Positions 3,618 to 64,000 of a stretch of DNA of 64,000 nucleotides are shown here, one piece after another. The position numbers and the translations under genes are program-made. How positions within the stretch are numbered: position 1 is the first letter of the stretch; the number at the start of each line of letters is the position of its first letter. The stretch lies in the IMG/VR virus record IMGVR_UViG_3300027917_004314; one strand, 5' to 3'. The notes beneath the pieces are model-generated. The model worked only from the letters and a program-made list of their open reading frames with translations. It made no database searches and was not told where the DNA came from. The DNA is from a virus (lineage: Duplodnaviria > Caudoviricetes).

Positions 3618-4271
3618 ATGGCTCTTTATATTTACCAGTCAGGAGTCCAACCACTAGGACAGTTTGACGCTCTAGATGGCTATCTCGACGGAACTTATGA
3701 CACCATCCTTGGTGGTGAAATTGGCACCGTTTTCGCAGCTGCTAGGACCGTTTCCGCCAGCGAAAAAGCCGCATACGACGTACTTGATGGTTATACCAAC
3801 GCAACTGATCAGTACCGCCCTGCGATCGCTAACAGTATTGATGCATCTACTACACGCCCACTATGGCTACTTGATGATGGTACAGCCGGATATGGCACTC
3901 TGTTTGGCCAGGTAATTGGTACTCCAGTCGGACTTTCCACCACTGGAACCAATCTCGGACCTCACACCGCTGCTGCAAGTGGCAAGGTCACTTGTTGGGA
4001 CAAGCCAGGTCTTTACGCAGTTTCTGTTGACGCAGTTGACACTTCTGCCGACGGTCTGGTACTCACCAACGTTAATTGTGACCCCGCTGCTGCGATTCAG
4101 CCACAGCATGATGGTACTCTGACCGTATCTACAGCTTCTACTGCTGTTGATGTCACAGTTGGTCGATTCATGGAATTTGAGACAAGCCCGTTCTTGGTAA
4201 CCACTCCACCTTCATTGGTCGGTGCTACCGAAGCGGCAGTAAGAGTTGTATTTAGCTACATGGTAGAGTAA
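3618..4271 (+). CDS. Head decoration / capsid cement protein
   Basis: 217 aa, immediately upstream of the major capsid protein; GGAGG RBS; Gly/Thr/Ala-rich beta-type composition. Confidence 0.65.
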   Translation: MALYIYQSGVQPLGQFDALDGYLDGTYDTILGGEIGTVFAAARTVSASEKAAYDVLDGYTNATDQYRPAIANSIDASTTRPLWLLDDGTAGYGTLFGQVIGTPVGLSTTGTNLGPHTAAASGKVTCWDKPGLYAVSVDAVDTSADGLVLTNVNCDPAAAIQPQHDGTLTVSTASTAVDVTVGRFMEFETSPFLVTTPPSLVGATEAAVRVVFSYMVE

Positions 4272-4313
4272 TAAGAAATAGTAAGAATAAAGACAATAGT
4301 GATTCCAAGGATT

Positions 4314-4334
4314 CCCCCCTCTTAAAGAGGGGGG
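4314..4334 (+). other. GC-rich intergenic hairpin between the decoration and capsid genes
   Basis: CCCCCCTCT-TAA-AGAGGGGGG, 9-bp perfect stem with no downstream U-tract. Confidence 0.6.
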
Positions 4335-4367: not shown

Positions 4368-5399
4368 ATGTCGTTATTTAGTACATATGGAAAACAAGGC
4401 GAGCTGAATGCGAGTTCCGTTAGAGATGCTCTTGCGAACATTGTGAAGTACGCTAGCGTACTTGACGATTTGGCCCCTGCAAACCAGGGTCTAGCGCAAC
4501 AGCCATCCTATACGGATGATCAGCGTAACGAGCTTATTAAGCGCGCTTTGATGACGCAAGAAGGCAAGATTGCTCTTGGCCAGGCAATGGCCAATCCGAT
4601 CCGCAGAAACTTGGATTATCAAGGAGTGGGCCGGAGAGTTTTGGTTGTCGACCCGTTGCCCCAAGGTGCTCTTCCTGTATACGACCGCGATATCGATGTC
4701 GCAGCTACCGTTGTTTCTAGCAATGGTTCTGCTCCAGAGAGCCGCGTGTTCGGTGACAGGGTGACTGTACCTGAGTTTGAGGTTGTTTCTAATCCTACTG
4801 TGCGTATTGCTGAGGTAAGAAGGCGTCGTTTTAACGTGATCGACCGTGCTCAGCAGAAGGCAAGGCAAGAGATCCAGGCACAAGAAGATGCTAACATTTT
4901 CGCGTCCCTCGATTTCGCAGCCGATGCAACGCTTGGTGGAGAGAACACTGCCCAGGATATTGCTGATGCGGGACTTCTAAAGCGTGACCTTTCCGAGATT
5001 AAGGTTCAGGTAGACCGTTGGGACCTTGTAACTACTAAGTTCCTCATGAATATCATTGAATTTAATGACATTCTGAATTGGGCAACTGGTGGTGGCCAAG
5101 GATCTAATGGCGGCGAGGTTGATCCTGTTACGATGAGAGAGATCCTTCAGACTGGTCTATATGCCCACATCTGGGGTGCAGACATCATCGTTTCTAAGAT
5201 CGTCCCAGTCGGAACCGTTTTCGGAACCGCCGATCCAGAGTTCGTAGGTGTTATGCCTGTCCGTCAGGACATCGAGGTACTACCTGCCGATGAGCCCAAG
5301 CAGCTAAAGCTTGGTTGGGTTATCTCTGAGATCATCGGAATCGGCATCGTCAACCCACGCGGTTGCGCTGTTGGTCGTAAGTCTGTTGCTGTTGGCTAA
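4368..5399 (+). CDS. Major capsid protein (HK97-fold type)
   Basis: 343 aa; AGGAGG RBS; followed by a strong terminator. Motifs IRRNLDYQGVGRRVLVVDPLPQG and HIWGADIIVSKIVPVGTVF...EIIGIGIVNPRG are typical of large tailed-virus capsid proteins. Confidence 0.85.
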   Translation: MSLFSTYGKQGELNASSVRDALANIVKYASVLDDLAPANQGLAQQPSYTDDQRNELIKRALMTQEGKIALGQAMANPIRRNLDYQGVGRRVLVVDPLPQGALPVYDRDIDVAATVVSSNGSAPESRVFGDRVTVPEFEVVSNPTVRIAEVRRRRFNVIDRAQQKARQEIQAQEDANIFASLDFAADATLGGENTAQDIADAGLLKRDLSEIKVQVDRWDLVTTKFLMNIIEFNDILNWATGGGQGSNGGEVDPVTMREILQTGLYAHIWGADIIVSKIVPVGTVFGTADPEFVGVMPVRQDIEVLPADEPKQLKLGWVISEIIGIGIVNPRGCAVGRKSVAVG

Positions 5400-7346: not shown

Positions 7347-7634
7347 ATGAGCAAATGGAATTATTTTGATGTTGTAACCGTTGACGGGTACGATTTTCCT
7401 GTTGTACCGCAAGCTAATTTTAGTTTTCTTTCTACTGCAATCAGCTTTCTAAACAGGAGTAGTTACGTCATAGAATATTCTTTTGATGGTACAACTTTAC
7501 ATGGGGATCTAAACCCTTCTGACAGTTCTAGTGGAGTAATGTGTGACAACCGTGTAGAAAGCAAAGTATGGTTTAGGGCAGTTGATGGGTATGGAGATGT
7601 AAGAGTCGAGGCTTGGGGGAACTCTGGTAGATAA
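7347..7634 (+). CDS. Small beta-rich protein with two DGY motifs (possible decoration protein)
   Basis: 95 aa; AGGAG RBS; own candidate promoter. Confidence 0.7.
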   Translation: MSKWNYFDVVTVDGYDFPVVPQANFSFLSTAISFLNRSSYVIEYSFDGTTLHGDLNPSDSSSGVMCDNRVESKVWFRAVDGYGDVRVEAWGNSGR

Positions 7635-10195: not shown

Positions 10196-10699
10196 ATGCA
10201 CAGGGAATGCGGTGATTGCACGGTATGTTGTTATGTTGGTGGCGTACCAGAGCTTGGAAAGCCTGCACATAAAAAGTGCTGCTATGAGAACAAAGGATGT
10301 TCTATTTACAATAGTCGAGAACGCCCGTCAATTTGTAATAATTTTCAGTGCGCTTGGTTACGTGGTATAGGGTCAGAGAATGATAGGCCTGATATCAACG
10401 GCGTAATGTGTTCTGATAATTTTTTAAATGGTGGCCATTGGGTTTTTGTGATTGAATTGATTCCTGAGGCGGCAACTACTAGCGGGTTATCAATGGTAAA
10501 ACAGCTTGTAGAATGTTTTGATATTCCAGTAATAATTTCTAACTACGATTCTATACCCCCGAATGATACTGGTGACCGCGTAATAATTAAAGATTCACTA
10601 AAAACAAGATCTAAGAAATTAATGGGAGAATTGATTCAATACCTAGACGATGATAAAGTTATGGGTATTTATAAGTTAACAAATGGCAGTAACTTTTGA
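10196..10699 (+). CDS. CxxCxxCC (YkgJ-like) cysteine-cluster protein
   Basis: CGDCTVCC...CCYENKGCSIYNSRERPSICNNFQCAW. Confidence 0.75.
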   Translation: MHRECGDCTVCCYVGGVPELGKPAHKKCCYENKGCSIYNSRERPSICNNFQCAWLRGIGSENDRPDINGVMCSDNFLNGGHWVFVIELIPEAATTSGLSMVKQLVECFDIPVIISNYDSIPPNDTGDRVIIKDSLKTRSKKLMGELIQYLDDDKVMGIYKLTNGSNF

Positions 10700-12848
10700 T
10701 GGGGAAAGAATTGCAGATGCCGAAGTATCGAACCCAACAACTCCGGTGCCTGGTTTGTGGGAAGATGTTGGCGGCGGCGCTGCAACCGAGGAAACAGACT
10801 TTTTTTACCAGGGTAGCGGTTCTATATCGGAGCAGGTGAAAGCAGCTGAGTTCGGCATTTGTTTTATCCCAAGTGCTTTGACATATGACGCAGGCGGGTA
10901 CTTTTTCCTGCTGAAAGGAATTGTTACCACAAGCGGTTTGCTTGAGACAGCACGCATTAATGGTCAAAAATTTGAAATTGGATCTGGAGCCACTGCGGGA
11001 TCAGGCAAACCTACTAATTATCATCAATGGTATACATATGTTCAAAGCACATATCCGCCTACTACCAGTTGGATTATACATTTGTTTGATGTAAATGAAA
11101 TAGGTTTTATTGATAATACAAATGGCACAGTATCGGCATCTGCAATTAATTACTGGGGCGAAGTGGCTACAATGACCGGGAATGTTAAGTCACAGAATGT
11201 AGCAATGGACGCAATTGAATATATTGGGGTAGGAAAAGGATTAACGTGGAGCGGAGCTAACGGTGAATTTGCAGATTTTACAGACTTTGACGAGGGCACA
11301 ACAAGTAATAGATATGGAATTATAACTACCAAGGGTGGCGTTTTATATGTGCTGGGTACGCTAACCATTGGCAGCTCAACAGCTACATCTTTTGTTGACT
11401 CCAATCAGAAACTTATTTTTCCATGGACATATGTTGGCGAGGGAGCGCTTGGCGTTACATTTGATTTACAAAACGCCTCTACTGATATTGACTTAAGTGT
11501 ATGTTCATTTACTGGTAATGGACAATCTTCGGTCAAAAAGTTTTTTGATACATATTTACAAGTTGATGCCGGCAACGATGACATCACAGTACCATTTCAT
11601 GGTTGGGAAACAGGAGATTATGTAGAATATTCTGATGAATATGGGACGCATAATATAGGTCTTACCGACGGAAGTAGTTATTGGGTATATGTAATAGACG
11701 ATAGTACAGTAGCTATTCATTCGTCAAGATCTAATGCTTTTTCTGACACTTCGCGAGTTGATTTATCGATTGGTGCGGATCCTGGGGAAAATCATTCTCT
11801 GACACGTCAACCTGATAATAGAATAGATTTCACTGTCAGCGATAACGACGGATCATTAGACCTAGCTTCGTGCATTATAGAAGGTGTGCGCAATATGACG
11901 TTGACGTCAGCATGCTCCATTACTAGTGGATTTATCCAAAACATTGGTAATATTGATGCATCAACGGCAACTATAACAGGTGTCTCTATTAGTGATGCCA
12001 CGCTTTCAGAGGGTGTTGCTTTATTTAGCCCTCTAACAACATTGAGTAATATTACAGAATGTGAATTTACCTCGGATGGATATGGGCACGCCTTTGAGTT
12101 GATATCTACTGGTTCTACTGATTCGAATGCCAATGAGTATAGTGGCTATTGGACACCAACAATTAGTGGAGATTCTTATGGTTGGGAATTTGCTACAGAT
12201 ACTGGTGTAGACGATAGTACAGATATTATTACAACTAATGCTGCACACGGATTTGCAACCGGGGATGCGGTATATTATAACGACGAAGGTGGCACCGATT
12301 CTATAGGTTTAACAGACGGATATAAATACTATGTTAATGTTGCCAGCAGCACCACTTTTAGTGTGCATAATACTAGAGCTGCAGCAGTTGCAGGGACGCA
12401 AAAAATTGACCTGATCGATGGTTATGGTGAAACACACGCTGTATATTCTAGTAATGCCACACTCTATAATAATTCCGGCGGCTCTGTAACTATTAATGTA
12501 TTAAATGACGGCGATTCCCCCAGCGTAAGAAATGGTACTGGCGCTTCAACCTCTGTTGTAAACACAAAAACTCTAACAGTTACATGTTTAAATGCTTCTG
12601 GAAATGGCATCGAAAACGTCCGCGTAAGGATTGAAGCTTTGGCAGACGGATCTCTTATTAGTGAAGGATATACGAATGCCAGCGGCGTATATCAGGACAC
12701 TTCTTACAGCTTTACAGTTGAGGTTAATGTTAAGATAAAGGCCAGACTTAAAGGGTTTAAATTTAATGAGGCATCAGATACTATTACTGCAGGTGGATTG
12801 TCTGTGCCTTTTACAATGATTAAAGATACGGCAGTTGATCTGCCATAA
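10683..12848 (+). CDS. Virion fibre/spike protein with an internal duplicated beta domain
   Basis: 721 aa, Thr/Ser/Gly/Asp-rich. Two copies of the module H-G-[WF]-x-T-G-D...IGLTDG...Y.V; C-terminal module shared with gene 13198. Confidence 0.65.
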   Translation: MAVTFDGERIADAEVSNPTTPVPGLWEDVGGGAATEETDFFYQGSGSISEQVKAAEFGICFIPSALTYDAGGYFFLLKGIVTTSGLLETARINGQKFEIGSGATAGSGKPTNYHQWYTYVQSTYPPTTSWIIHLFDVNEIGFIDNTNGTVSASAINYWGEVATMTGNVKSQNVAMDAIEYIGVGKGLTWSGANGEFADFTDFDEGTTSNRYGIITTKGGVLYVLGTLTIGSSTATSFVDSNQKLIFPWTYVGEGALGVTFDLQNASTDIDLSVCSFTGNGQSSVKKFFDTYLQVDAGNDDITVPFHGWETGDYVEYSDEYGTHNIGLTDGSSYWVYVIDDSTVAIHSSRSNAFSDTSRVDLSIGADPGENHSLTRQPDNRIDFTVSDNDGSLDLASCIIEGVRNMTLTSACSITSGFIQNIGNIDASTATITGVSISDATLSEGVALFSPLTTLSNITECEFTSDGYGHAFELISTGSTDSNANEYSGYWTPTISGDSYGWEFATDTGVDDSTDIITTNAAHGFATGDAVYYNDEGGTDSIGLTDGYKYYVNVASSTTFSVHNTRAAAVAGTQKIDLIDGYGETHAVYSSNATLYNNSGGSVTINVLNDGDSPSVRNGTGASTSVVNTKTLTVTCLNASGNGIENVRVRIEALADGSLISEGYTNASGVYQDTSYSFTVEVNVKIKARLKGFKFNEASDTITAGGLSVPFTMIKDTAVDLP

Positions 12849-33858: not shown

Positions 33859-33888
33859 TAGCCACATACTATTGGAGGTTTTAAAACG

Positions 33889-34521: not shown

Positions 34522-34537
34522 TAATCATAAATTTATT

Positions 34538-34563: not shown

Positions 34564-34662
34564 CCCCCCCTTCTATTTCTGCAGAATGGAAAACAATACT
34601 AACTTCTTACAATCCATAATAATTTAACCACGCCCTTATGGGGTATTAGTAGAGGTGTATAA

Positions 34663-35546: not shown

Positions 35547-35561
35547 GAGGTGTCATGACAT

Positions 35562-37799: not shown

Positions 37800-37819
37800 A
37801 TATTGGAGTGTACACAAAT

Positions 37820-52971: not shown

Positions 52972-55900
52972 TGGCTAATAACCTGCGCATTCAAAGACTG
53001 GCGGTTAAAAGTAGCACTTTATTAGAGTTGTCTTTTAACTACCCTTTGGATTCTGGTATAGGAATTAACAACATAACAATCGAGGGTGCTAGCGGTGGCA
53101 CCAGTGATGCAACCATTTTATCAGTATCTGTATCTACAAACATCTTAAGTATTAGTGTCAGGCCACTTATACCAAGGGCGCATTATAAACTTACTGTGCG
53201 GTCTACGTCTTCTCAAACAGTCACTGGCGTGCATGGGCAACCATTTCTTGAGGATGGTGCCACAAATGTTGTATTTTTTGTTGGACAGCAAGAAGAAAAT
53301 GTTGTTAGAGATGATATTCTTGGAGAGCTTAATAATGGCATTTACAACACTGATGAGGGGACGTTAATTTTTGATACAATCGACGCCGGAGCGAAAGAGA
53401 TTTTAGTTAACGGGCAAATCGCCGGTGAAGTGCGAAGCGCTAATTATGTCTCCATTGAAGTAGCAGACGAAATATTGACGAGAGGAGAAGGCCCATTTGA
53501 CAGGTTTGCCAATGAGAGTGTTTTTCAAGTGTTAAGGGTTGGTTCCACGTCCACCGGAGCATCTGCTGCAGCCTCCATATCTTTTGCCGAATTTCCGTCT
53601 GATCCTGTTAGTTTACAAAGGGTATTGGTTGAAGACGAAGAGGTGTCAAACACATCTAATGATGCGAACAGTTTTGTTGGGTTAGATATTAGTTTGTCAA
53701 AAAGTCCTGTTATTCAGCTAACATCTCTTACTTTAACTAGAGATACAACTACATATACATATGATATTAGCGCCTATAAATATGGTGTAAAAGAAAGTAA
53801 ATATGATACAGATAACTCATATCAAGCTATAGATCTCGATGATAATCAAATTAGATTAAGTAGCGCGGCTGTTGGACCAACATTCCCATTCCCACAAGGC
53901 AGCGATACAATTACTGCATCGTATTACTATAAAAGGGAAGGTAGGATTGTAGAGTCAGACACTGTAGAGGTATACACTCCGGTTGATATTGTAAGGGAAT
54001 CAGTACCCGCTGTATCAGTGGCATTTACACTTGGCAACGCGCCAATCATTAATAGTGCTGGTGACATCCCAACTTTGAACGGCGTTACCTGGCTTGATCC
54101 CGGACAGAATTTTGATCCAACAAAAAAGCATGCTGCCTTTACAACAGAACTAATTTACAACACATCAAACTTACCTAAGGCGCCAGGCGAATACTCAGTA
54201 AACTACTCAACAGGTCAGGTTATAGTCTTTGGAGTAGACGGCAGTGGCGTAGATGGTACAACTGTAACGCCGCCGGTAGCATCTTATAAATATAAAAAAG
54301 TTTTTCAAGAAGGTTTGGATTATAGATTTTTCTCAGACATAAATGAAATAGCATCACTGCCAGGCAGAGACCTTCGAGATGGTCCCGGAACTGTTGCATT
54401 TGAATATGAAGATACGTTTGCAGATGGCTCAGATTTTGAATTTTCTTCCCACATCGAGGTTATTGATGAGAGAGTTAATAACAATTTAATTGATACAATA
54501 GGATTGAAAACTACTTATAGCCCTGTAAGAGAAGTGTTTAGAATATTTAATGAAACAACCGGCGAAATCTATACTACCACAAGGATAAATGGAAATGAGG
54601 TATATTTTTCTTCTGTGAGCCCACCAAACACTGTAGATGTCTCTCGTGAAAGAGTCGAGTTTGATCAAGTAATTCAATCGCAATTGGTAGTTACAGATGA
54701 ACTTACCATAGCTGGTAAAGCATTTGTTGCTTTTAGGATACTATTTACTGATTCAGATATTATGTCCGCATCTGGTAGTTTTATCGGGGCAAGTTTTAAC
54801 AGCTCTTTAACGTTTTCTGACACCACGATATTCGAAGATGAGTTCTTTTATGACCCAAACGACACCGTAAACGAAAATTTAGCGAGACTGCAGAACGTTG
54901 GCGATTATATGGTTAATTATGAGTCTGGTATTGTATATGTAGCTGCCACTTCTGGATCCAGCACAGCTGTTGGTGATGCATCATATCGTCGCGGCAAAAT
55001 TAAAACCAGAAACGACCATATTATCCGTGTCGACGATGTGTATAGAAGCGCAAGTGTGACAGCTGCAAACACCGAAACTATGACTGTTGGTACGGTTAGT
55101 GATACCACGGTAGATATTACAAATCTGTCTCATGTGGGTGAGCGCACTGTAGATGGCGCCACTATTGACGTTTCTAGCACTTCAACTATAACGGTAAGTT
55201 CAGATATATTCAGATTGTCGCATGTCTATCAGGTTACAGATTTGCAAACCAGATGTGATCCGATAGATTTTGCAGAAAGTGCTGTTGTTTCTTCTGGCAC
55301 TCCAACTGTAGTTACATTGGATGAATATGGTGTGGCAATTACGGATGATAATTACGGATCCGGCTTGTTGGTGAAAACTGCCGGGTCTAGAGAATATGTG
55401 GAAGCCGAAAGAATATCAACAATGTTTGCTGCAGGCCTAGCAACATTGGTTTCAGCCATTAGTGTGAATCCTCTAGATGATACGACCAATTACTATTCGC
55501 AAGGCGCCGACGGATACATTGATGCTGTAACTAATAGGATTTATTTGCCGACAGGGTCTGGTATCGCTGGCAGTTTGGTGGAAGCCACATATAAGGTAGC
55601 TTTACGCCCCGGCGCGTCCGTATTGGTAGACTATATTACAGGCGAGATGTTTATAGATTATACGTATACTACTGATGAAATATTAATTAGCTACGAATAT
55701 GGGGATAATGTATTGGATTGGAGTATCTCAGATTCCCTGAGTTCTGGTACTGAATATTATGTGACCTATAGATATGGTGCGCTGAGGCAACCATTGGTGG
55801 ATAATTTTGGGGTTTTAACCAGTCTGGAAGAGCTAGCTACCATACCAGATGCATTAGATAGAGAAACTTATCGTAATGCTGTATCTGGCTCACTCCAATC

Positions 55901-58900
55901 ATTTATTAAAGGGCCAACAATTCCGGCTATAGAATTGTTGGTCGAGGCTTTTACACAGATAACCCCCAACATTACCGAATCTGTTTTCTTAGAGTGGATT
56001 TTGGGCAGAGATTCTCTACACTTAATGGAAATGGAATTATCTGCTGATAGCGACGATGATTTGCCGACCTATGCTCCTGGCAAGTTTGGCAACGGTTTGC
56101 TGCTAAACAAAGCGGGACAAACGGCTACAATTCCAGCTAATTCTAATATAAGTTTCCGCGAGGGTACGTGGGAGGCTTTTGTAACCCCAGAGTGGAAGGG
56201 GATAGATAATGATGCTACTCTGACATTTGATATACTTTTTGATGGACAAGAGCGCCTCAATAATATATTTATCGGAGCAGACGCCGCTAACCCAACAGAG
56301 ATTCCGTTCTCGTTGGATAGCACTGACCCAAGCGTGCTGGGTAGACCCAGCAATTTACATTCAGCAACTGGATATTTCATTTGGTTTGACACGTCAGCAA
56401 GCAAATGGCGCATGCGTAATAGGGCTCCCATATCTGAAAGCCGTTTGTTTTCTGGCAGGATTACAACTTCAGGCGAGTTCCATGACGTAAAAGTTGCTAG
56501 TACTGCAGATGGTTACGATGGATATGACGGCTATGAGATAAATGAAATAAACGATTCTCTAAGATCGACAAACGAAACTATCAGATTTAGTTTTGTCGTA
56601 GACGGATATGATTCACTTAACATGGCGTTTGATGCCTATGACGCGTATAATGGAGATATTGCAGGGTTTGATGGAATAGATTTTACATCGGACGATATAC
56701 ATTATTTCTTTGATACCGGATATTTAGCGAACAGGTGTCGTATGTCATTGTACAAAGATGGCAAGGGGTTTCTTCGTTATAGAGTTTATGACGGCATTGG
56801 CCGCGTCAAAATGTTAAGTCACAACATTAATGATTGGGGTCTTAACGAAACTCACCACATTGCAACGTCATGGAAAATAGGCACTATAGAAATGAAAGAC
56901 GAGTTACACTTATTTGTGGATGGCGAAGAAGTTCCTAATACATATAGATTTAGTGGTTATTTAAGCGTGCCGGGTAGCTCGACACTATATATGGATGAGG
57001 CTTCAGAAATTCTAATTAGCTCTGTATCCAGCCCAACAATAGGTGGCATTGATCTTTCCACCACATCTGGGTCTGATATTGTATCATCTGTTGGTTCGGA
57101 TTTCAGTTCGGTGACGGTTGGTAGCAGATTTTTGATTCTAGATAGTACTGCTGATGGCGTTGCCACACAAACATCGCCGTATGTTTATGTGAGATCCATA
57201 CCGAGCCCAACATCTCTGCAACTGGAGACGGGCCCACCAGGGTCTGGGACACCATACAATGCGGTTTCAACTTTAGACGATGTAAGATTTTCTGTGAACC
57301 CGCTTACTTTAGAAACAGTAAGTGACCCCGAAATAGAAAGAATAAGAGTATTTGAGTTAGACACTGGCGGACTTGAAACAGAGCTTTATTCGCCATCAAC
57401 GCTAACTCCGGATTACGGATTTACAGAAGATGGATACAACGATATAGTTAATATTTATAACGGTTTGGCCGTAGGTTCGAGCGTAGTGTTGAAAACTTAT
57501 GGTCTAAACATCCAACGATGCATCAATTATGCGTATGTTTGGCCAGACAGATTGACAAATTTGCTAAATGTTGTGACACCTCCGCCAACAGCTATTTCTA
57601 AAATTAATGTCACCAATTTAATAACTAGGCGAACATCTGTTGGTTTGGGCACATTCGCTCTGATAGCGACTATAGTGGGTGGACACATAGTACCTGTGTT
57701 GACGTCAAACCTGGAGTTTTGTCAACCATCTAATACCATAACTGGCAGAAGACTTACGGCAACATTGTCTGGGGATAATATTAGTTTCTCTGGACTCAAT
57801 CGGATATTTATTATCGGATCAACGTCAGATGGCTATGGCTTAGAAACTATAACCTTTACATCTACTGGTAAACAAACAACTACCGGTTATTTCACAGAAA
57901 TTACAGATATTATAGCATCATTTACACCTATAGATTCTAGCAGAGATGCCGGAAGCGTTGAAATTCGAGAAGCCGTCCCTATAAATTGGCAAGAAAATGA
58001 TGGCTATTATGCAGAAATACATCTGTCAGTACGGGAGCAGAATGGCATTAACGGCACCGCCACAGTAGGAACTGGCAGGGTAAGAGACGTTTCTGCTAGA
58101 TTTGGGGAAGAAGATATTGGTAAAACTTTCAATATAGATTCGCCTGGTTCTATTGCTGGTGTATACACAGTACAAGATGTCCCACTAGATCCATCTGGCA
58201 CAGTAAAAGACTCAGATACGGTAATTTTGGACACAACGTGGGGGGATGGATATTCTAGCATTCAATGGCGGCTACTTACCACTTCCTATGGTGACAGTGG
58301 TTTTGCCAACGGACTGCTCACTTTTGAGACTGTTGGCACAGGCGGAGATCCATTTTTGCTTAGAAGTTGTTGGTACGAGGTAGACCACCCTGCATTTCTG
58401 ATTATTCCGTGGGATCAAATCCCAGATAAAATATATGTCGGCTCTGACATGAATGGAGAAAACCAGGCAAACGCAGTTATAGACGAGATGCGTATATTAG
58501 ATGAGCTGTCGGTTGACACTGGCCTTGGGGAATCTGCACCAAGTTCCGGAAGGTCCATAACAACAGATTCTTTGGTAGTGGAGGAATTTACGGAAACAAC
58601 TCAAACGCTCGGATTATTCCATTTCAATGATGACGTTACAAATAGCGCTGATTTCTGGTCCAGTTTTTCTGGCTCGTACAGACAAAGCGAAAACAGCGTT
58701 AATAGCAATTTTGAGCAATCTGGGGTGTTTATTTATAATCAGCCACTACAGTATGATAACGCATCCATTTTTAACAATGATGAGGGCACGATTGAATTTT
58801 GGATTAGTCCAATTTTGGACGGGTATAACGACCCGACAATTAGATACTATGTAGATTTGTCACCAGATTTGCAAGCTGCAGCGACGGCAGTTTCGGCGTT

Positions 58901-59783
58901 GATAGTACCACTACCGTCTAGGGCCAGATCAGTAAGCTCTGTAACTATAACGGGCAGTGATACCAACTATTTCACGAATGGTAGCCTATCTGCAGATGGC
59001 AATACTGTCACTCTTGGGCAGCCACTTCCAGGAAATGTCCGTGATGTTACAGTTACATTTGTGCCGATAACCAGTCAGGGAGATAGATTTAGCATTTTTA
59101 AAAATGCAGCTAATTCTTTAATACTACGCGTAATTGCTTCCGGAATCACATATCAGATTACAGTGCCGATATTCTGGAAAAAGAATACGTGGCATAGAGT
59201 TTTCGTGGGTTGGGATCTGAACAATTTAGATAATCAGGATAGACTTATTATGTTGGTAGATGGAATGGAAACCGGGACTGCCCAGTATAGCAGTGACTCT
59301 GTCGTGCTAGGCTCCAGCAAGGTAGGGACTCGGGCTGCTAGAAACATTATGACTGACATTAACCTTGTTGATTCATTTAATACGGTTAATATTGGCGCTG
59401 ATTTTGCGGGTCAATACTCGGCATTGGCAAGAATTGATAATATGAGATTTTCTAGTGAGTTAAGAACAGTTACATATCTGGGTGGTGAAGGACCAGGTCA
59501 ACTACTGGGAAGAGATTTAATATATACAAGTAATACTGATACAGCACAACCAGTTGTTAGTGATGCGCTTACACGATTGTTATTAGATTTTGACACTACG
59601 CAGACCGAAGTAGAAAATCTAATCACTATAAGAAATGCTACTACTGGCATATTCGACTTTTTTGTAGAAGTTATCGATACGTTTAGCCTTGCAGATACGC
59701 AACTGGCGCACGATTTGATTGAAGCACTAATTAATAGGATAAAGCCGGCTCACACCAGAGCTTTTGTGAGCTTTACGAAATAG
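52971..59783 (+). CDS. Giant baseplate wedge / fibre-attachment protein with an Ig-like domain and two LamG-like domains
   Basis: 2270 aa. GPTIPAIELLVEAFT wedge motif; EGTWEAFVTPEW...HHIATSW...LFVDG and EGTIEFWISP...WHRVFVGW; ends INRIKPAHTRAFVSF. Confidence 0.7.
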   Translation: MANNLRIQRLAVKSSTLLELSFNYPLDSGIGINNITIEGASGGTSDATILSVSVSTNILSISVRPLIPRAHYKLTVRSTSSQTVTGVHGQPFLEDGATNVVFFVGQQEENVVRDDILGELNNGIYNTDEGTLIFDTIDAGAKEILVNGQIAGEVRSANYVSIEVADEILTRGEGPFDRFANESVFQVLRVGSTSTGASAAASISFAEFPSDPVSLQRVLVEDEEVSNTSNDANSFVGLDISLSKSPVIQLTSLTLTRDTTTYTYDISAYKYGVKESKYDTDNSYQAIDLDDNQIRLSSAAVGPTFPFPQGSDTITASYYYKREGRIVESDTVEVYTPVDIVRESVPAVSVAFTLGNAPIINSAGDIPTLNGVTWLDPGQNFDPTKKHAAFTTELIYNTSNLPKAPGEYSVNYSTGQVIVFGVDGSGVDGTTVTPPVASYKYKKVFQEGLDYRFFSDINEIASLPGRDLRDGPGTVAFEYEDTFADGSDFEFSSHIEVIDERVNNNLIDTIGLKTTYSPVREVFRIFNETTGEIYTTTRINGNEVYFSSVSPPNTVDVSRERVEFDQVIQSQLVVTDELTIAGKAFVAFRILFTDSDIMSASGSFIGASFNSSLTFSDTTIFEDEFFYDPNDTVNENLARLQNVGDYMVNYESGIVYVAATSGSSTAVGDASYRRGKIKTRNDHIIRVDDVYRSASVTAANTETMTVGTVSDTTVDITNLSHVGERTVDGATIDVSSTSTITVSSDIFRLSHVYQVTDLQTRCDPIDFAESAVVSSGTPTVVTLDEYGVAITDDNYGSGLLVKTAGSREYVEAERISTMFAAGLATLVSAISVNPLDDTTNYYSQGADGYIDAVTNRIYLPTGSGIAGSLVEATYKVALRPGASVLVDYITGEMFIDYTYTTDEILISYEYGDNVLDWSISDSLSSGTEYYVTYRYGALRQPLVDNFGVLTSLEELATIPDALDRETYRNAVSGSLQSFIKGPTIPAIELLVEAFTQITPNITESVFLEWILGRDSLHLMEMELSADSDDDLPTYAPGKFGNGLLLNKAGQTATIPANSNISFREGTWEAFVTPEWKGIDNDATLTFDILFDGQERLNNIFIGADAANPTEIPFSLDSTDPSVLGRPSNLHSATGYFIWFDTSASKWRMRNRAPISESRLFSGRITTSGEFHDVKVASTADGYDGYDGYEINEINDSLRSTNETIRFSFVVDGYDSLNMAFDAYDAYNGDIAGFDGIDFTSDDIHYFFDTGYLANRCRMSLYKDGKGFLRYRVYDGIGRVKMLSHNINDWGLNETHHIATSWKIGTIEMKDELHLFVDGEEVPNTYRFSGYLSVPGSSTLYMDEASEILISSVSSPTIGGIDLSTTSGSDIVSSVGSDFSSVTVGSRFLILDSTADGVATQTSPYVYVRSIPSPTSLQLETGPPGSGTPYNAVSTLDDVRFSVNPLTLETVSDPEIERIRVFELDTGGLETELYSPSTLTPDYGFTEDGYNDIVNIYNGLAVGSSVVLKTYGLNIQRCINYAYVWPDRLTNLLNVVTPPPTAISKINVTNLITRRTSVGLGTFALIATIVGGHIVPVLTSNLEFCQPSNTITGRRLTATLSGDNISFSGLNRIFIIGSTSDGYGLETITFTSTGKQTTTGYFTEITDIIASFTPIDSSRDAGSVEIREAVPINWQENDGYYAEIHLSVREQNGINGTATVGTGRVRDVSARFGEEDIGKTFNIDSPGSIAGVYTVQDVPLDPSGTVKDSDTVILDTTWGDGYSSIQWRLLTTSYGDSGFANGLLTFETVGTGGDPFLLRSCWYEVDHPAFLIIPWDQIPDKIYVGSDMNGENQANAVIDEMRILDELSVDTGLGESAPSSGRSITTDSLVVEEFTETTQTLGLFHFNDDVTNSADFWSSFSGSYRQSENSVNSNFEQSGVFIYNQPLQYDNASIFNNDEGTIEFWISPILDGYNDPTIRYYVDLSPDLQAAATAVSALIVPLPSRARSVSSVTITGSDTNYFTNGSLSADGNTVTLGQPLPGNVRDVTVTFVPITSQGDRFSIFKNAANSLILRVIASGITYQITVPIFWKKNTWHRVFVGWDLNNLDNQDRLIMLVDGMETGTAQYSSDSVVLGSSKVGTRAARNIMTDINLVDSFNTVNIGADFAGQYSALARIDNMRFSSELRTVTYLGGEGPGQLLGRDLIYTSNTDTAQPVVSDALTRLLLDFDTTQTEVENLITIRNATTGIFDFFVEVIDTFSLADTQLAHDLIEALINRIKPAHTRAFVSFTK

Positions 59784-59796: not shown

Positions 59797-62670
59797 ATGG
59801 CAACCAGACGTCTAGACGTAGATGTTCCACGCGTGAATTGGTTTGATGGATTGAGCGTTACTGAAGATGATATGGATGATGAGCAAAGTAGAAATATTGG
59901 CATAGATGCCGCGACCGTGAATAATTTTTTCGGCAGCGGTGTGCTTAACCATTCTTTAGCTGATACGACATTTTTGGACACCGATTCGCTCAATTCACAG
60001 CAACAGGCGTTACTAGATGCTTATTCATTTGACGGACAAAACGTTTATATAGGTTCATCCCTTACAAGTGTATCCGACGAGGTACAGGGTGTGCAAATTG
60101 CGGTGACGCTTACAGGTGTAGATTTGGATGGAACGGAATCTACAAAAGTGTCTATCATAGGAGATGAATTTGGAGATAACCTTATTCATGATGATTTAAT
60201 ATTCCATGAAAATGGCACTCAAATAACAAGAGGTAGATATAATAACCTGCGCTCCATCATATTTAACGACTTTTCCGGCAATCTGAGGGGTAGCCGCGCC
60301 CCAGCAAGAGAGTCATCAGATGTATATGAAGAGCTGGTCGGAAGGTGTGTAGTTCGCGAAGCTCGTTCACTAGAAGTGTCACCAGATCCTATAATTGCCT
60401 CACAAATGGACCAACCAACCAGGTTTTTTAATAGTTTCTCGCCGGCACAGGTTGGTGACACTGTAAGCTCTATGCTACAGGATGCCATTGGAGCCGACAA
60501 ATCTGTTGCTGACCTTGGTATTGGATTTTTGGCAACAGCCTCTAGATCGTTAGCGCCTAATGATGTGAGCACGATGGTTGGCCAGAAATTTCTGGCTAAT
60601 GGGTCTAACATACAAAAAGTATCTATTTTGCTATCAGTGAAGGAAGATACTACTGTTCTTCCTGCCGATGCCTATAACTGGTCTGGCTCAATTACTATGA
60701 CCATATATGAACTGCAGACTGATGTGTCATGTCCGACTGACCCAGTACCAGATAATGCCGTTGATTTTGATCCAAATCCAACAATAATTACACAACTTTC
60801 ACTGGATAGTGATGACTTAGAGAAACAAGGAGTTGTGCTGACAGATGGATATGATGCATACCAAATTGTTGACTTTGTGTTTACAGGCTCTCCCGTCTCT
60901 GATCCGCTGCGGACAGCAATTGAAACCGACAGATATTATGCTATAGCAGTCCACAGGTCCGGTGACACTAGTGTGGGCACGTTGGTGTTGGCAGAAGTTC
61001 CCCACCAGGTGACACATGGATATATGATAGTATACGACGGAATCCAATGGGTAAATGTGACTGACAGTGATATGTGGTTTGCAATATATGGCGATTATGT
61101 CAAAATGGCGGATGGCATTGGATATGATGAGGGTGTTGGAGTGGAAGTTCCAAAGATTAAAGAAGACGATACCAACACAGAAGTGCCGTATGTAGAGGGG
61201 TTCCATTCATATTATACAGTGACAAGAGATGCATATAATTATGTAATTATGGAGACTCAAAACGAGTTTTCTGACCCCGTGCAAGATCAGAGAACCGGCA
61301 ATAATGTTTACTCTAGAATTACTCCTATGCCGTCGTTTTCGCTTAACAGTTCTTCACAGCTTTCATCCCTTTTGGTGTCAGAACCATCTCCTGTAATGCT
61401 GGCGTGTGCAAGAGATCAGAATGCCAGGGGCAACCCTGCTTCCATCACTGGCACAATGGATTTGATTGGATTAGTAACTAGCAATGAGCTTAATATGTTA
61501 AACCCCGATGCGGATCTGTTAAATAATAATTTGGTGGGCTCTACGATAAAACCGGATAGTGCTGGGTGTACTACAGAATACAGGATTATAAGTGCTACTG
61601 AAGTCGACGATGCTTATGGCGATACAAACGGTGACGGCGAAATAGGCACAAACGATTACACACTTATAGATGATTGGCTGAGCAAATATAATGTTTATTT
61701 AATAACACTGCCGGTTGGTTATCAGAAAATAAGTGCATCAGATGCATATTTCCAAGGTGAAATTGCGGACGGAGAGCTAGATGTGTTGCAACTGCTCAGG
61801 GCTGATGTAAATGACGATGGTTATGTTGGGGCCGATGACTCTGCACTAATACAATCTTTTGTAAATAGAGAGATTTCAACGTTTCCGGCAGGGTCTACAT
61901 TTCCAAGATTGAATATAAAAGTCGAAAGCATACTTGATCCGCTTACTACAAGCGTGAATATCCCAGCTACGTGTCCTGGGTATTCTACTGCGCCATATAG
62001 CGTTTTGACCTGGGAGATAGATTATTTCGCCACATGGATACCAGATTTGTTAGTTGTACAGGACACCAGAAGAGAAATGCCAACCACTTTTACTGATGAT
62101 GTTGCGGCATGTGATGGTGGAAAAAATAATTTCTTTGTGCCGGGAGATCTGGTAATTGGTGAGCTGCAACTTAACCCAGACGGGACACATTATTCTGTAG
62201 ATTTCGAAATGAATCATTTGTCGTTAGATATTCCAATCACGGATTCATATGGTAACGCAACTTTTGTCGATGGCTATACAGGAATACTATTGTTTGACAA
62301 TTTTGTGGCCGAAACTTCAAACGGAAAAACGTTTTCTGGTTTTGATGCAATGAAATACGCTGATGGTACATATGTGCAGTTGACTGATTTTGCAGATGGT
62401 AAAGTTAAAATTGCTCCGTGTATACAATCAACAGCCAACGGCTTTGACGCACCTTTTGGTAGTATAATAGAAGATATTGTCGGAATGTATTATGACCCTG
62501 CTACGTCGCTAATGACTTTATACCTCGATAATCTTTTCGATGATGGTTATGAATCACGTCCAGCGCTTAGTACAAAAATTCTTGTATCGGTATATCTAAA
62601 AAGGGCTGGGTTTAAAAATGACACAAGAACGGTAACTATGGGCCAAATGAGAACATTGCTCGACATATAA
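59797..62670 (+). CDS. Baseplate/fibre connector protein with a dockerin-like domain
   Basis: RVNWFDGLSVTEDDMDDEQ N-terminus; paired loops GDTNGDGEIGTND and ADVNDDGYVGADD. Confidence 0.65.
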   Translation: MATRRLDVDVPRVNWFDGLSVTEDDMDDEQSRNIGIDAATVNNFFGSGVLNHSLADTTFLDTDSLNSQQQALLDAYSFDGQNVYIGSSLTSVSDEVQGVQIAVTLTGVDLDGTESTKVSIIGDEFGDNLIHDDLIFHENGTQITRGRYNNLRSIIFNDFSGNLRGSRAPARESSDVYEELVGRCVVREARSLEVSPDPIIASQMDQPTRFFNSFSPAQVGDTVSSMLQDAIGADKSVADLGIGFLATASRSLAPNDVSTMVGQKFLANGSNIQKVSILLSVKEDTTVLPADAYNWSGSITMTIYELQTDVSCPTDPVPDNAVDFDPNPTIITQLSLDSDDLEKQGVVLTDGYDAYQIVDFVFTGSPVSDPLRTAIETDRYYAIAVHRSGDTSVGTLVLAEVPHQVTHGYMIVYDGIQWVNVTDSDMWFAIYGDYVKMADGIGYDEGVGVEVPKIKEDDTNTEVPYVEGFHSYYTVTRDAYNYVIMETQNEFSDPVQDQRTGNNVYSRITPMPSFSLNSSSQLSSLLVSEPSPVMLACARDQNARGNPASITGTMDLIGLVTSNELNMLNPDADLLNNNLVGSTIKPDSAGCTTEYRIISATEVDDAYGDTNGDGEIGTNDYTLIDDWLSKYNVYLITLPVGYQKISASDAYFQGEIADGELDVLQLLRADVNDDGYVGADDSALIQSFVNREISTFPAGSTFPRLNIKVESILDPLTTSVNIPATCPGYSTAPYSVLTWEIDYFATWIPDLLVVQDTRREMPTTFTDDVAACDGGKNNFFVPGDLVIGELQLNPDGTHYSVDFEMNHLSLDIPITDSYGNATFVDGYTGILLFDNFVAETSNGKTFSGFDAMKYADGTYVQLTDFADGKVKIAPCIQSTANGFDAPFGSIIEDIVGMYYDPATSLMTLYLDNLFDDGYESRPALSTKILVSVYLKRAGFKNDTRTVTMGQMRTLLDI

Positions 62671-62686
62671 TTCGGAGGTTTAAGAG

Positions 62687-64000
62687 ATGGTAACTGCATC
62701 TATAGTAATTTCGCAGGCCGGTAACCCGCCACCTGGTGGTTATGTTAGCGGCAGCAGAACAGACCTAGATACATCTGGGTTGGTAACTTTAACTAATGAG
62801 GATAATACTGGCGTTATATCATGGACATGGAAACTTATATCTATACCTGATGGTTCCTCGGTATCTTTATCTGGCGGCGCCACTTCTACGGCCACTTTTA
62901 CACCAGATGTAGATGGCTCATATTTGATACAACTTGCTGTAAACGGACATATTAAAGCTAGAGCAGTGGGCTCTGTTTTAACGTCTAATAATATTAGACT
63001 TATTGCGCGTGGAGAAACAGATGAGGTCGAAGGTAGCTGGACTCAGGCTGTGAACAACAATTTTGTTTTGTTAGAGGCGCTCGGCGCTGGTGGTGTTGGG
63101 GCACATGCTCTTGGTGGTTCAGTGCATACTGCCGATTCGCTTGCTGACCTTAATTCGAAAATTTCGGATGCTACACTGGATGATTCTAGTAATTCTAGAC
63201 CACCATCTGGCTCTGCGGGAGGACAGTTGGGCGGGACATATCCTAACCCAGACGTGCGTGGTATAAGGGAAACTAGTGGACCAACTTTGTTGACCATTGG
63301 TTCCATTGCAGATGGAGAGGTGCTGACAAGAAGTGGTTCTACTCTCACTAGTACCGCTGGCGGAGGTGCTGGTAACACTCTCGATCAGGCCTATGATGAG
63401 GGCGGCGGCGGAGTAGGCAGATCAATTACTGTAGATTCTGGCCCAGTTTTTATGGATGCTAGTGGTGCTGGAGCACTACAACTTGATGGATATCTTACCA
63501 TAAAAGAAATATCATCGCCAAGCGCATTAGGATCAAGCGGTCTTGTATACTCTAAAGACGTCTCATCAATTTCTGAACTGTTTTATATGGATGACGGTGG
63601 CCAAGAAATACAAATTACTGATAATGGCTCTGTTGTTGGCGGAGGTGCTGGTAATACACTTAATCAAGCTTATGATCAGGGAGGAGCGGGTGCTGGTAGG
63701 TCAATCACAGTGGATGCCGGCCCAGTTTTTATGGATGCTAGTGGTGCTGGAGCATTACAACTTGATGGATATCTTACCATAAAAGAAATATCATCGCCAA
63801 GTGCATTAGGATCAAGCGGTCTTGTATATTCCAAAGACGTCTCATCAATTTCTGAACTGTTTTATATGGATGACGGCGGGCAGGAAATACAAATTACCAG
63901 TAATGGAGCGGTGTCTGGTGGTGGTGGTGGCGGAGACGGATATGGTGACAGATTCTTAATTTTTTCTGATGATACAGAATTTACAGAAACAAGTAGCAGC
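62687..64000 (+). CDS. Tail fibre protein, 3'-truncated by the window edge
   Basis: GGAGG precedes ATG 62687 and the frame stays open to the end. PKD-like WTWKLISIPDGS...TFTPDVDGSYLIQL, Gly-rich hinges. Not in the ORF track. Confidence 0.85.
   Translation, partial: MVTASIVISQAGNPPPGGYVSGSRTDLDTSGLVTLTNEDNTGVISWTWKLISIPDGSSVSLSGGATSTATFTPDVDGSYLIQLAVNGHIKARAVGSVLTSNNIRLIARGETDEVEGSWTQAVNNNFVLLEALGAGGVGAHALGGSVHTADSLADLNSKISDATLDDSSNSRPPSGSAGGQLGGTYPNPDVRGIRETSGPTLLTIGSIADGEVLTRSGSTLTSTAGGGAGNTLDQAYDEGGGGVGRSITVDSGPVFMDASGAGALQLDGYLTIKEISSPSALGSSGLVYSKDVSSISELFYMDDGGQEIQITDNGSVVGGGAGNTLNQAYDQGGAGAGRSITVDAGPVFMDASGAGALQLDGYLTIKEISSPSALGSSGLVYSKDVSSISELFYMDDGGQEIQITSNGAVSGGGGGGDGYGDRFLIFSDDTEFTETSSS
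63359..63916 (+). repeat. Near-identical tandem 279-nt (93-aa) coding duplication in the tail fibre
   Basis: GGGAGNTL.QAYD.GG.G.GRSITVD.GPVFMDASGAGALQLDGYLTIKEISSPSALGSSGLVYSKDVSSISELFYMDDGGQEIQIT occurs twice. Confidence 0.9.

Follow-up and report, generated by a model that had tools for sequence, protein, structure and literature searches.

The glycosylation of mycobacteriophage virions by phage-encoded glycosyltransferases was reportedly described by Freeman et al. in Cell Host & Microbe in 2023, with Myrna among the phages concerned. A similar scheme may apply to the DNA analyzed here, a stretch of 64,000 nucleotides from an uncultured huge phage of marine sediment (the window): in both cases, the proposal is that glycosyltransferases encoded by the phage itself modify structural proteins of the particle in the cytoplasm. 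In the mycobacteriophages, however, the acceptors are Ser and Thr in the C-terminal tails of capsid and tail-tube subunits. Here the capsid and tube proteins are without the motif, and the candidate acceptor is a Tyr within a tripeptide, D-[G/A/S]-Y, that is found across more than 16 peripheral proteins. Myrna, a distant relative of the window phage by its capsid, sheath and baseplate proteins, displays no DGY excess, whereas the present clade does display the excess and its glycosylation is only predicted.

As a three-residue code in exposed loops of many unrelated proteins, with turnover of the sites, D-[G/A/S]-Y resembles the N-x-S/T sequon and the Bacteroidota motif D-(S/T)-(A/I/L/V/M/T), the latter also starting with Asp. 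Unlike in these two, the acceptor would be the Tyr at the third position. Both known systems work outside the cytoplasm on secreted proteins, whereas the candidate phage transferase would be cytoplasmic. The Bacteroidota sequon itself was rejected, as it is not enriched (97 occurrences against 110 expected in virion proteins, and 63 against 67 elsewhere). Tyrosine O-glycosylation is known from the S-layer proteins of Paenibacillus and Thermoanaerobacter, and also from glycogenin and PaTox. These provide a precedent for a sugar on the tyrosine hydroxyl, including surface arrays of Firmicutes, which is the host phylum of phage G, the nearest cultured relative of the window phage. Transfer to S-layer proteins is extracytoplasmic, unlike that in the candidate phage system. 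We know of no D-x-Y sequon for S-layer, glycogenin or PaTox glycosylation, nor of any transferase with such a sequon.

Tyrosine sulfation by TPST and RaxST takes place in a similarly acidic, turn-rich context, and a sulfotransferase is encoded in the tail-adjacent gene island of one relative (G002), the only one in which it was found. The classic sulfation site, however, has an acidic residue adjacent to the Tyr. Such a context was rejected for the window phage: in the virion proteins of its 161-kb record (G000), adjacent DY is depleted to 0.76 of expectation while D[GAS]Y is enriched 7.6-fold. The HxH metal-binding motifs of the trimeric fibers and spikes of T4 (gp37, gp12) likewise consist of two ligands, spaced two residues apart, in fiber proteins of the virion, and HxH is also found in the 664-aa protein of the window. 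These HxH sites of T4 keep their positions on a three-fold axis, whereas most DGY sites are isolated, loop-located and turning over. The first-pass annotation of the window knew of no comparable system, and full-text literature searches returned no published description of a DGY motif in phages. In the multi-omics paper on phage G, glycosylation is mentioned only as a possible DNA modification (PMC12484599).

The DGY excess and its place in the virion

Per-gene counting yields 51 DGY, 21 DAY and 6 DSY tripeptides in the window, the DGY being spread over 16 genes (Table 1). No other tripeptide comes close to DGY as an outlier. The first-pass counts of DGY were reproduced gene by gene; its approximately 20 DAY and 6 DSY became 21 and 6 on recounting, and its composition-based expectation of about 5 DGY was recomputed as 4.3. 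The enrichment also stays under the dipeptide-aware model that had been set beforehand as a test, with 8.0 DGY expected by a first-order Markov model (z = 15). Within-protein shuffles give 4.5 +/- 2.1, with a maximum of 13 in 5000. The Poisson probability is approximately 1e-35 against the shuffle mean and 3e-24 against the Markov mean. Overall, the frequency of D-[G/A/S]-Y is approximately 10- to 30-fold above chance in those particle proteins that face outward, both in this huge phage and in its relatives.

It is extremely improbable that the excess is an artefact, whether from composition, from internal repeats or from paralogy. DGY does occur within the repeat units of fiber paralogs (the fiber protein at the end of the window is a paralog of five DGY-rich fiber genes at 21213-28668 of G000), and 6 of the 21 DAY belong to a single internal repeat, 'EIDAYLS.IHG..(S/N)WEG.G', of the 850-aa protein, which has 8 DAY in all. 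However, 46 of the 51 DGY sites are more than 12 residues apart, and repeats therefore do not explain the count. Most DGY-bearing proteins have no detectable homology to each other, as all-against-all BLASTP links the fiber paralogs only, and the excess is found again in five relatives with a GC content of 30-46%. The Markov and shuffle models, the homology test and this recurrence rule out a composition or dipeptide artefact. A single shared domain as carrier of DGY was likewise rejected, with BLASTP, Pfam and flanks all against it: the Pfam domains of these proteins are few and unrelated to each other, and no consensus is found in the residues flanking DGY. A scan of bacterial genomes for (DGY)3 was uninformative, its matches (at least 120) being simple-sequence repeats of 9 bp that occur in many frames and in a wide range of taxa.

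The constraint lies at the protein level, as the first-pass annotation had argued from the variation in codons. GAT and GAC, all four GGN, and TAT and TAC are all in use. In the 161-kb record, GAYGGNTAY is found 90 times in forward and 3 times in reverse orientation (control: 10 and 14), essentially in frame only. A DNA-level motif was rejected on these grounds and by the persistence of the pattern across 30-46% GC.

The excess is confined to the peripheral virion proteins, in agreement with the proposed marking of decoration, neck, sheath, baseplate and fiber proteins, and head fibers are included. In the virion blocks of the 161-kb record, 114 D-[G/A/S]-Y are observed against 15 expected, compared to 12 against 11 in its non-virion genes, where DGY alone is also at expectation (4 against 3.6). 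A coat over the whole virion, as initially envisaged, does not agree with these data, since the capsid, tube, tape measure and hub are without the motif. The reported absence of DGY from the major capsid protein, the tubes (33250 and 33889), the tape measure (35562), the 1587-aa hub (38602) and the three upstream proteins was confirmed, and the gene at 43353 also has none. The block of tubes, chaperones, tape measure, 264-aa protein and hub contains zero DGY in 3,290 residues.

Several motif-bearing proteins deserve a closer description. In the 2270-aa protein, 10 of the 24 DG dipeptides are followed by Y, the same count as in the first pass, and a tandem DGYDGYDGY lies at nt 56508-56534. The 664-aa protein consists of N-terminal Ig/FN3 domains, a Cys cluster and C-terminal HxH motifs. 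The sites of the sheath fall in a region without counterpart in the shorter phage G sheath. For the 418-aa head-region protein, no homolog was found in the relatives.

Table 1. Features of the window, with their motif content (aa, position in the protein)
Feature	Position	Strand	Motifs and remarks
Probable decoration protein, 217 aa	3618..4271	+	DGY x2 (aa 20, 57); directly upstream of the major capsid gene
Major capsid protein	4368..5399	+	DGY x0; internal negative control; 54% identical to phage G gp27
Head-region protein, 418 aa	6039..7295	+	DGY x2 (aa 114, 129)
95-aa protein	7347..7634	+	DGY x2 (aa 13, 80)
721-aa protein	10683..12848	+	DGY x3, DSY x1; weak Ig-like (Big_1) match below cut-off
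Head-region protein, 1011 aa	13198..16233	+	DGY x5
850-aa protein	16263..18815	+	DGY x3, DAY x8
385-aa protein	19138..20295	+	DGY x1
Neck-region protein, 664 aa	20970..22964	+	DGY x5, DAY x2, DSY x2
Conserved DGY cluster of the 664-aa protein, DGYGNDGRRDGYDGYANTDGY	21996..22058	+	aa 343-363
1667-aa protein, right-handed beta-helix	23826..28829	+	DGY x6, DAY x3
251-aa protein upstream of the sheath gene	29295..30050	+	DGY x1, conserved
Tail sheath, 847 aa	30684..33227	+	DGY x2 (aa 147, 430), DSY x1
Tubes, chaperones, tape measure, 264-aa protein, 1587-aa hub	33250..43365	+	internal negative control
Baseplate-region protein, 673 aa	45633..47654	+	DGY x1; orthologs 2-5
Baseplate J-like protein, 1079 aa	49732..52971	+	DGY x1, DSY x1
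Outer baseplate/fiber protein, 2270 aa, LamG-like domain	52971..59783	+	DGY x10, DAY x2
Tail protein, 957 aa, dockerin-like Ca-loop domain	59797..62670	+	DGY x4, DAY x6, DSY x1
Fiber protein, 537 aa, continues beyond the window end	62687..64000	+	DGY x3, within repeat units

Turnover, residue requirements and structural setting of the sites

DGY ranks first among the outlying tripeptides in G000 and in the relatives G002, G003, G004 and G006, and its excess is weak in G005. Among 111 homologs of the 664-aa protein, 766 DGY occur against 24 expected, and among 120 homologs of the 957-aa protein 659 against 29; in total, the excess extends to more than 200 metagenomic homologs. No excess was found in phage G (34 DGY, against 21.6 expected by composition and 29.4 by the Markov model), LR745208, Tunturi_5, Rctr197k or Myrna.

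Across orthologs the individual sites turn over and their density is maintained. G000 and G001 have 13 DGY sites in common, with 12 found only in the former and 12 only in the latter. In two alignments, DGY appears in 32 and 43 columns with 121 and 144 parsimony changes, compared to 5 columns for YGD. Orthologs of the 1667-aa protein contain 0-11 DGY at mostly different positions, and the G006 ortholog of the 217-aa protein has kept the DGY at 57 and misses the one at 20. Both DGY of the 95-aa protein are missing from its G006 ortholog (64% identical) and therefore represent recent gains, at loop or indel positions. Tandem arrays of (DGY)3-6 are also present. Some sites are highly conserved: in the cluster of the 664-aa protein (aa 343-363), every DGY has been retained by 72-79 of 83 aligned homologs, and the DGY at aa 825 of the 957-aa protein is highly conserved in position and located mid-strand. 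Such position-conserved sites look structural or ligand-binding rather than like a replaceable tag.

The motif was proposed as D-[G/A/S]-Y, and DGY, DAY and DSY indeed swap within one alignment column. Asp is not replaced by Glu, nor Tyr by Phe or Trp, which suggests that the carboxylate and the phenol are themselves required, rather than just any aromatic or a turn. Within the homolog sets of the 664-aa and 957-aa proteins, the observed/expected ratios are 0-0.4 for EGY, 0.3-2.3 for DGF, 0.5-2.3 for DGW and 0.3-0.5 for DTY. Read backwards, as Y[GAS]D, the motif is merely as frequent as expected (1.0) in the virion proteins of G000; this, together with the reversed order of the residues (D-x-Y), led to the rejection of substrates for radical-SAM three-residue cyclophanes (triceptides, Aromatic-X-X). 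The tyrosine corner of Ig/FN3 domains (D-x-G/A-x-Y) was rejected as well, with D.[GA].Y observed 7 times against 9.7 expected. The D-[G/A/S]-Y sites are mostly in loops and not at the strand ends of Ig domains.

This loop location, proposed from sequence in the first pass, is also found by AlphaFold mapping. In two confident AF2 models, the Tyr is in coil at approximately 14 of 20 D[GAS]Y sites and most of the others are at helix or strand edges, with no common local fold. The model of the 664-aa protein (pLDDT 84.9) has all 5 DGY outside regular secondary structure, including the cluster at aa 343-363, which is coil with a pLDDT of ~62; Foldseek with this model returned generic FN3/Ig arrays only. 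The model of the 957-aa protein has a pLDDT of 87.8. In two homolog sets, 96% and 86% of the sites adjoin indel-prone columns, compared to 42% and 38% of all residues.

Other functions than modification have to be weighed against these properties. It is unlikely, though worth considering, that the sites are ligand-binding microsites, in which the carboxylate of the Asp and, two residues on, the phenol of the Tyr would together bind either a sugar or a metal ion such as Fe(III) or Ca2+. Many weak surface sites would then serve adhesion to host or sediment polysaccharides or metal-stabilized assemblies. The strict requirement for Asp and Tyr, both hard-ligand donors, around a small middle residue speaks for such a role, as do the marine sediment source, the DGY arising within the dockerin-type Ca loops of the 957-aa protein, the 2.4-fold enrichment of H.H in the virion proteins of G000 and the spacing, which equals that of the HxH metal sites in trimeric phage fibers. 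The conserved multi-DGY cluster, moreover, belongs to the same protein as the C-terminal HxH motifs and the Cys cluster. However, a coordination sphere cannot be filled by a single Asp/Tyr pair, and the majority of sites stand alone in monomeric loops. Fast positional turnover is unusual in binding sites, flanking patterns of the DxDxDG type are absent, and no lectin or metal site is known that this tripeptide alone defines.

A lineage-specific structural or folding motif without a reader partner must be considered unlikely as well. With such a motif, the very large, beta-rich peripheral proteins would gain stability at helix caps or where loops pass into strands, or would be helped to fold and assemble. 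D-G is a favored turn and Tyr a favored first strand residue, some sites are conserved in position, and modeled sites lie right before a beta-strand (352/355 before 356, 480 before 481, 363) or cap a helix (74, 649). Yet such a general preference yields approximately a 1.2-1.6-fold excess, as in phage G, compared to 10-30-fold here. The interchange of Gly, Ala and Ser without Phe, Trp or Glu is the opposite of a left-handed Gly turn with a packed aromatic, the modeled sites have no local structure in common, tandem (DGY)n arrays cannot form turns, and the homologous folds of phage G manage without the motif. Exposure, turnover and tandem arrays are the behavior of a short linear motif and would also suit a docking code, to which a phage protein that coats the peripheral parts or puts them together would bind non-covalently (a dedicated chaperone, for instance, or a small protein for cement or decoration); a trigger factor homolog is indeed encoded at 42301-43656 of G000. 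Docking is nevertheless quite improbable: three residues provide little binding energy, no candidate reader protein was found to co-vary with the motif in the genomes compared, and trigger factor favors aromatic and basic stretches over acidic ones. Nothing in the data points specifically to the docking of a small protein, or to cross-linking.

Candidate enzymes and the proposed tyrosine modification

In six of six relatives (G001-G006), a GT4 gene comes directly after the last tail genes and has their orientation. Further downstream, the relatives encode a GT2, a CgeB-like glycosyltransferase (PF13524, absent from the complete phage G genome), GDP-mannose dehydratase/epimerases and methyltransferases. 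The island of G002 additionally contains a sulfotransferase (262 aa; PF13469 and PF17784 matches) and a radical-SAM/SPASM enzyme. The PF13469-type sulfotransferase was seen in this island only, and the remaining records, all incomplete, did not show it; a radical-SAM gene is also present in G001 and in none of the other records. Of the enzymes that the first-pass annotation had suggested looking for, glycosyltransferases were thus located downstream of the tail genes in relatives, but none (PF00534, PF00535) in the 161-kb record of the window, which ends 2.3 kb past the last large tail gene. PDB sequence searches returned generic GT4 enzymes only for the GT4 protein and no match for the CgeB-like glycosyltransferase, and no GT8- or PaTox-like enzyme was seen. 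G005 has an island with five GT4 copies, yet a weak DGY excess. The co-occurrence of motif and island is therefore imperfect, and phage G is the only complete negative genome.

Three other genes are common to several of these phages: an FAD oxidoreductase (377 aa; G002, G003, G004, G006), a PARP-like protein (G002-G004), neither of which was found in phage G or G005, and an aminotransferase class V (G000, G003, G004, G006). No tie to the motif was found for any of them.

The tail-adjacent glycosyltransferases and the glycan-synthesis island of the relatives provide circumstantial support for a modification code. As the best explanation, tentatively held and with a likelihood somewhat short of even, D-[G/A/S]-Y would be the sequon of a phage-encoded tyrosine modification, probably glycosylation. 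It would act as a short linear recognition motif, under selection in the solvent-exposed loops of peripheral virion proteins across a clade of huge phages that are phage-G-like and uncultured. Late in infection, the phage would make its own transferase, which would read Asp, a small residue and Tyr, and modify the hydroxyl of the tyrosine. The likeliest modification would be a glycan made by the glycosyltransferase/nucleotide-sugar island downstream of the tail genes, which we infer to be present in the genome of the window phage as well. The outcome would be a coat on the head decorations, neck, sheath surface, outer baseplate and fibers, leaving the capsid shell, tube, tape measure and hub bare. 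The original interpretation of the window is partly supported in this form.

Other points argue against this sequon, next to the position-conserved sites, the imperfect co-occurrence with the island, the lack of a glycosyltransferase in the 161-kb record and the absence of a known transferase with a D-x-Y sequon. The island could instead serve the glycosylation of DNA, of the host envelope or of Ser/Thr. A promiscuous cytoplasmic enzyme might also be expected to impose avoidance of its sequon, and the non-virion proteins display none (4 DGY against 3.6). Slightly less probable than the sequon itself is the wider reading that the whole huge-phage clade writes the D-[G/A/S]-Y code on every exposed part of the particle, with a cytoplasmic phage transferase adding a glycan or other group to the tyrosine and with sites gained and lost as freely as the N-glycosylation sequons of viral envelope proteins.

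Should the motif turn out to have a structural or ligand-binding role, it would still be an unusually clear example of selection acting on three residues, with one tripeptide in 10-30-fold excess and maintained by convergent gains in hundreds of relatives. If it is a sequon, it would represent a new sequon and a new tyrosine-directed system of protein modification, and the first 'programmable coat' of a bacteriophage virion, by which huge phages coat their particles by genetic program. Such a coat would bear on host recognition, sediment adhesion, particle stability and escape from recognition, and the motif would provide a sequence rule that predicts the particle-exposed proteins of uncultured phages.

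Asp-Gly-Tyr excess in the virion proteins

The window comprises the virion module of a large myovirus, with all long ORFs on the plus strand, and corresponds to bases 96,001-160,000 of a 161,010-bp IMG/VR record (G000). The same genes are also found on a 460,921-bp contig of another assembly; the DNA originates from marine sediment. Translation of 40 window genes (20,100 residues) yielded 51 Asp-Gly-Tyr (DGY), 21 DAY and 6 DSY tripeptides. The hand counts of the first-pass annotation stood up well: its list of DGY per gene is matched exactly in genes and numbers, about 20 DAY and 6 DSY had been claimed, and Tyr does follow 10 of the 24 DG dipeptides in the 2270-aa baseplate/fibre protein. The major capsid protein, tubes, tape measure, hub and three upstream proteins contain no DGY in the window translations, as it had also stated.

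No other tripeptide of the window is nearly as strong an outlier as DGY. Composition predicts 4.3 occurrences and a first-order Markov model 8.0 (z = 15), so that the excess is retained under a dipeptide-aware model. Tyr follows DG in 51/157 cases and Asp precedes GY in 51/88, while GY after other residues and DG before other residues are depleted if anything. The spacing exceeds 12 residues for 46 of the 51 sites. At the DNA level, the coding strand has 90 GAYGGNTAY matches and the opposite strand 3, with every synonymous codon in use; the constraint acts on the protein, as the first-pass annotation had proposed.

Throughout G000 the excess is confined to the virion and fibre blocks (82 DGY vs 5.4 expected; 114 vs 15 for D-[G/A/S]-Y, i.e. 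DGY, DAY and DSY). The non-virion genes (29,168 residues) hold 4 DGY vs 3.6 expected, and D-[G/A/S]-Y elsewhere amounts to 12 vs 11.1. Beyond the window, five fibre genes paralogous to the one at the window end form another hot spot; their 30 DGY lie partly in a repeat unit. Outside this family, the DGY-bearing proteins of G000 share no detectable homology, in line with the earlier description of mostly non-homologous genes, and carry few Pfam domains. No consensus around the tripeptide was found in the DGY-bearing proteins.

Other features were observed in G000. The 850-aa protein contains six copies of a ~55-aa repeat, each with EIDAYLS.IHG..(S/N)WEG.G. The fibre paralogues are directly followed by a class V aminotransferase/cysteine-desulfurase-like gene, kept in G003, G004 and G006. 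A phage-encoded trigger-factor homologue (Trigger_N and Trigger_C) lies near genes for a sigma-70-like factor, an FtsK-like ATPase and a DnaG-type zinc ribbon.

Coordinates of the features in the window, in G000 and in the relatives (L-numbers, fetched stretches)
Feature	Record	Position
95-aa protein	window	7347-7634
850-aa repeat protein	window	16263-18815
664-aa neck-region protein	window	20970-22964 (+)
957-aa tail protein	window	59797-62670 (+)
Dockerin-type loop	957-aa protein	aa 605-690
Fibre-gene hot spot	G000	21,213-28,668
Aminotransferase-like gene	G000	28686-29798 (L001:10687-11799)
Trigger-factor homologue	G000	42301-43656 (L139:10301-11656)
GT4 gene with LAGLIDADG-type insertion	G001	L007:6780-9482
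PARP-like protein	G002	L056:1414-2916
Sulfotransferase (PF13469)	G002	L065:18409-19197
Radical-SAM/SPASM enzyme	G002	L066:748-1740
(DGY)6 array, (GACGGTTAT)6	G005	C1:71333-71386
(DGY)5 array, (GACGGATAT)5	G005	C1:72749-72793
Intein-split GDP-mannose 4,6-dehydratase	G006	L072:12689-14878

Relatives and their glycan-synthesis island

The closest cultured phage, Bacillus phage G (54% identity in the major capsid protein), displays no DGY excess (34 in 146,000 residues, where composition predicts 21.6 and the Markov model 29.4), and none was detected in LR745208, Tunturi_5, Rctr197k or Myrna. The excess is present in the 49-kb relative G001 and in four large records, G002 (318 kb), G003 (208 kb), G004 (219 kb) and G006 (302 kb). 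Despite GC contents of 30-46%, no tripeptide stands out more than DGY in G000, G002, G003, G004 and G006. The records G002-G006 were retrieved via the tandem pattern DGYDGYDGY; G005 has a weak excess, with the majority of its DGY in tandem arrays. Its two perfect 9-bp arrays sit in a 3295-aa tail protein, and there is little excess otherwise. Among metagenomic homologues, 111 of the 664-aa protein contain 766 DGY vs 24 expected, and 120 of the 957-aa protein, among the matches listed, contain 659 vs 29.

(DGY)3 or longer also occurs in many bacterial genomes (L143-L222), notably Streptomyces, as 9-bp simple-sequence repeats, often in short or non-coding frames and unrelated to the phage clade. 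DGY-rich proteins (e.g. 428 aa with 9 DGY, 126 aa with 4) were seen on viral contigs L033, L047, L029/L038/L046 and L045, which have no detectable similarity to this phage over the fetched 5-15 kb stretches. L047 belongs to the clade because it lies on G006, the closest syntenic relative found at the whole-record level. Three huge-phage relatives (G002, G003, G004) encode a PARP-like protein with WGR, PARP regulatory and PARP catalytic domains.

Protein clustering across all records, followed by a Pfam scan of the conserved proteins, revealed a GT4 glycosyltransferase past the last tail genes, on the same strand, in every relative with this region available. The gene is directly 3' of the 957-aa orthologue in G003-G005 and follows the fibre genes, ~2.5-10 kb from that orthologue, in G001, G002 and G006. 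Downstream lies an island of genes for GT2, a CgeB-like GT (PF13524), GDP-mannose 4,6-dehydratase, epimerases and methyltransferases. In G006 a nucleotidyltransferase/kinase and a SIS-domain protein are also part of it. The island of G002 additionally includes a sulfotransferase as well as a radical-SAM/SPASM enzyme, and G001 has a radical-SAM enzyme; these include enzyme types that the first-pass annotation had named as candidates. An intein splits the dehydratase gene of G006, and the GT4 gene of G001 has a LAGLIDADG-type insertion.

The complete genome of phage G lacks PF13524, and its GT matches elsewhere stay below threshold. No GT was found in G000, which stops 2.3 kb past the 957-aa gene. 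The co-occurrence of island and motif is suggestive but not proof, the metagenomic records all being incomplete, and G005 carries the island yet has a weak DGY excess.

Residue specificity, turnover and location of the sites

Judged from the sequences of the 664-aa and 957-aa families, the motif chemistry is strict. EGY reaches 0-0.4 of expectation, DGF 0.3-2.3, DGW 0.5-2.3 and DTY 0.3-0.5, while DAY is enriched 7-8-fold and DSY 2-3.6-fold, and the same alignment column may hold DGY, DAY or DSY in turn. Among the virion proteins of G000, Y[GAS]D, the motif read backwards, occurs as often as expected, and DY with no residue in between is rarer than expected.

The positions turn over. Between G000 and G001 (56% identity), 13 sites are common and 12 are exclusive to each. 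In multi-genome alignments the DGY columns differ by lineage within the same protein. DGY is spread over 32 and 43 columns, for which parsimony counts 121 and 144 changes; YGD takes up 5 columns. Both DGY sites of the 95-aa protein were gained after the split from a 64%-identical orthologue. A small share of sites is strongly conserved, mainly the cluster DGYG.DG.RDGYDGY...DGY of the 664-aa protein, each DGY of which is retained in 72-79 of 83 sequences.

The sites are located in loops. Columns prone to indels adjoin 96% and 86% of them, compared with 42% and 38% for residues overall. According to AF2 models of the 664-aa (pLDDT 84.9) and 957-aa proteins (pLDDT 87.8, pTM 0.79), Tyr is in coil at ~14 of 20 D[GAS]Y sites. 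Most others are at a helix or strand edge, and three are within strands: DGY 825 (957-aa protein), DAY 87 and DSY 100 (664-aa protein). We only infer that the sites would be exposed, because the models were read for secondary structure and not for solvent accessibility.

The 664-aa protein terminates in three HxH motifs (AHSHQ, GHNHV, GHTHT) resembling metal-binding fibre tips. About 15 of its 111 homologues (P0004, P0008, P0025 and others) contain a ~410-aa intein with Hint and LAGLIDADG domains; its insertion site, ARC.(I/V)C|FGTGF, is conserved and belongs to a Cys cluster. The 957-aa protein has a dockerin-type double Ca-binding loop; its own Dockerin_1 match is weak (E 0.0065, below cut-off), and most homologues have a precomputed Dockerin_1 assignment (PF00404). 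A phage-tail dockerin suggests a cohesin-like binding partner.

A candidate tyrosine sequon

The best arguments for other explanations are the conserved multi-DGY cluster of the 664-aa protein and the mid-strand site. Ligand-binding microsites are an unlikely reading of the sites. A lineage-specific structural or folding motif is likewise doubtful; no common local structure was found among the D[GAS]Y sites of the two models. A docking code for a phage protein appears improbable. That the excess is an artefact is hardly credible; within-protein shuffles (n = 5000) gave 4.5 +/- 2.1 DGY, at most 13, vs 51 observed.

A full-text literature search found no published description of the DGY excess, and we know of neither a D-x-Y sequon nor any surface tripeptide of proteome-wide occurrence in phages. 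Mycobacteriophage virions are known to be glycosylated, but the acceptors and proteins differ from those here. The observations fit a short linear motif in which selection acts on the number of sites and their exposure rather than on where they lie, and sequons are known to behave likewise. That precisely Asp and Tyr are required suggests a chemistry on or with those side chains. Given this sequon-like behaviour, the Asp/Tyr requirement and the glycan island of the late module, D-[G/A/S]-Y is therefore tentatively favoured as a tyrosine-directed modification sequon, most likely for glycosylation, and the enzymes of the island would be plausible candidates for its writers.
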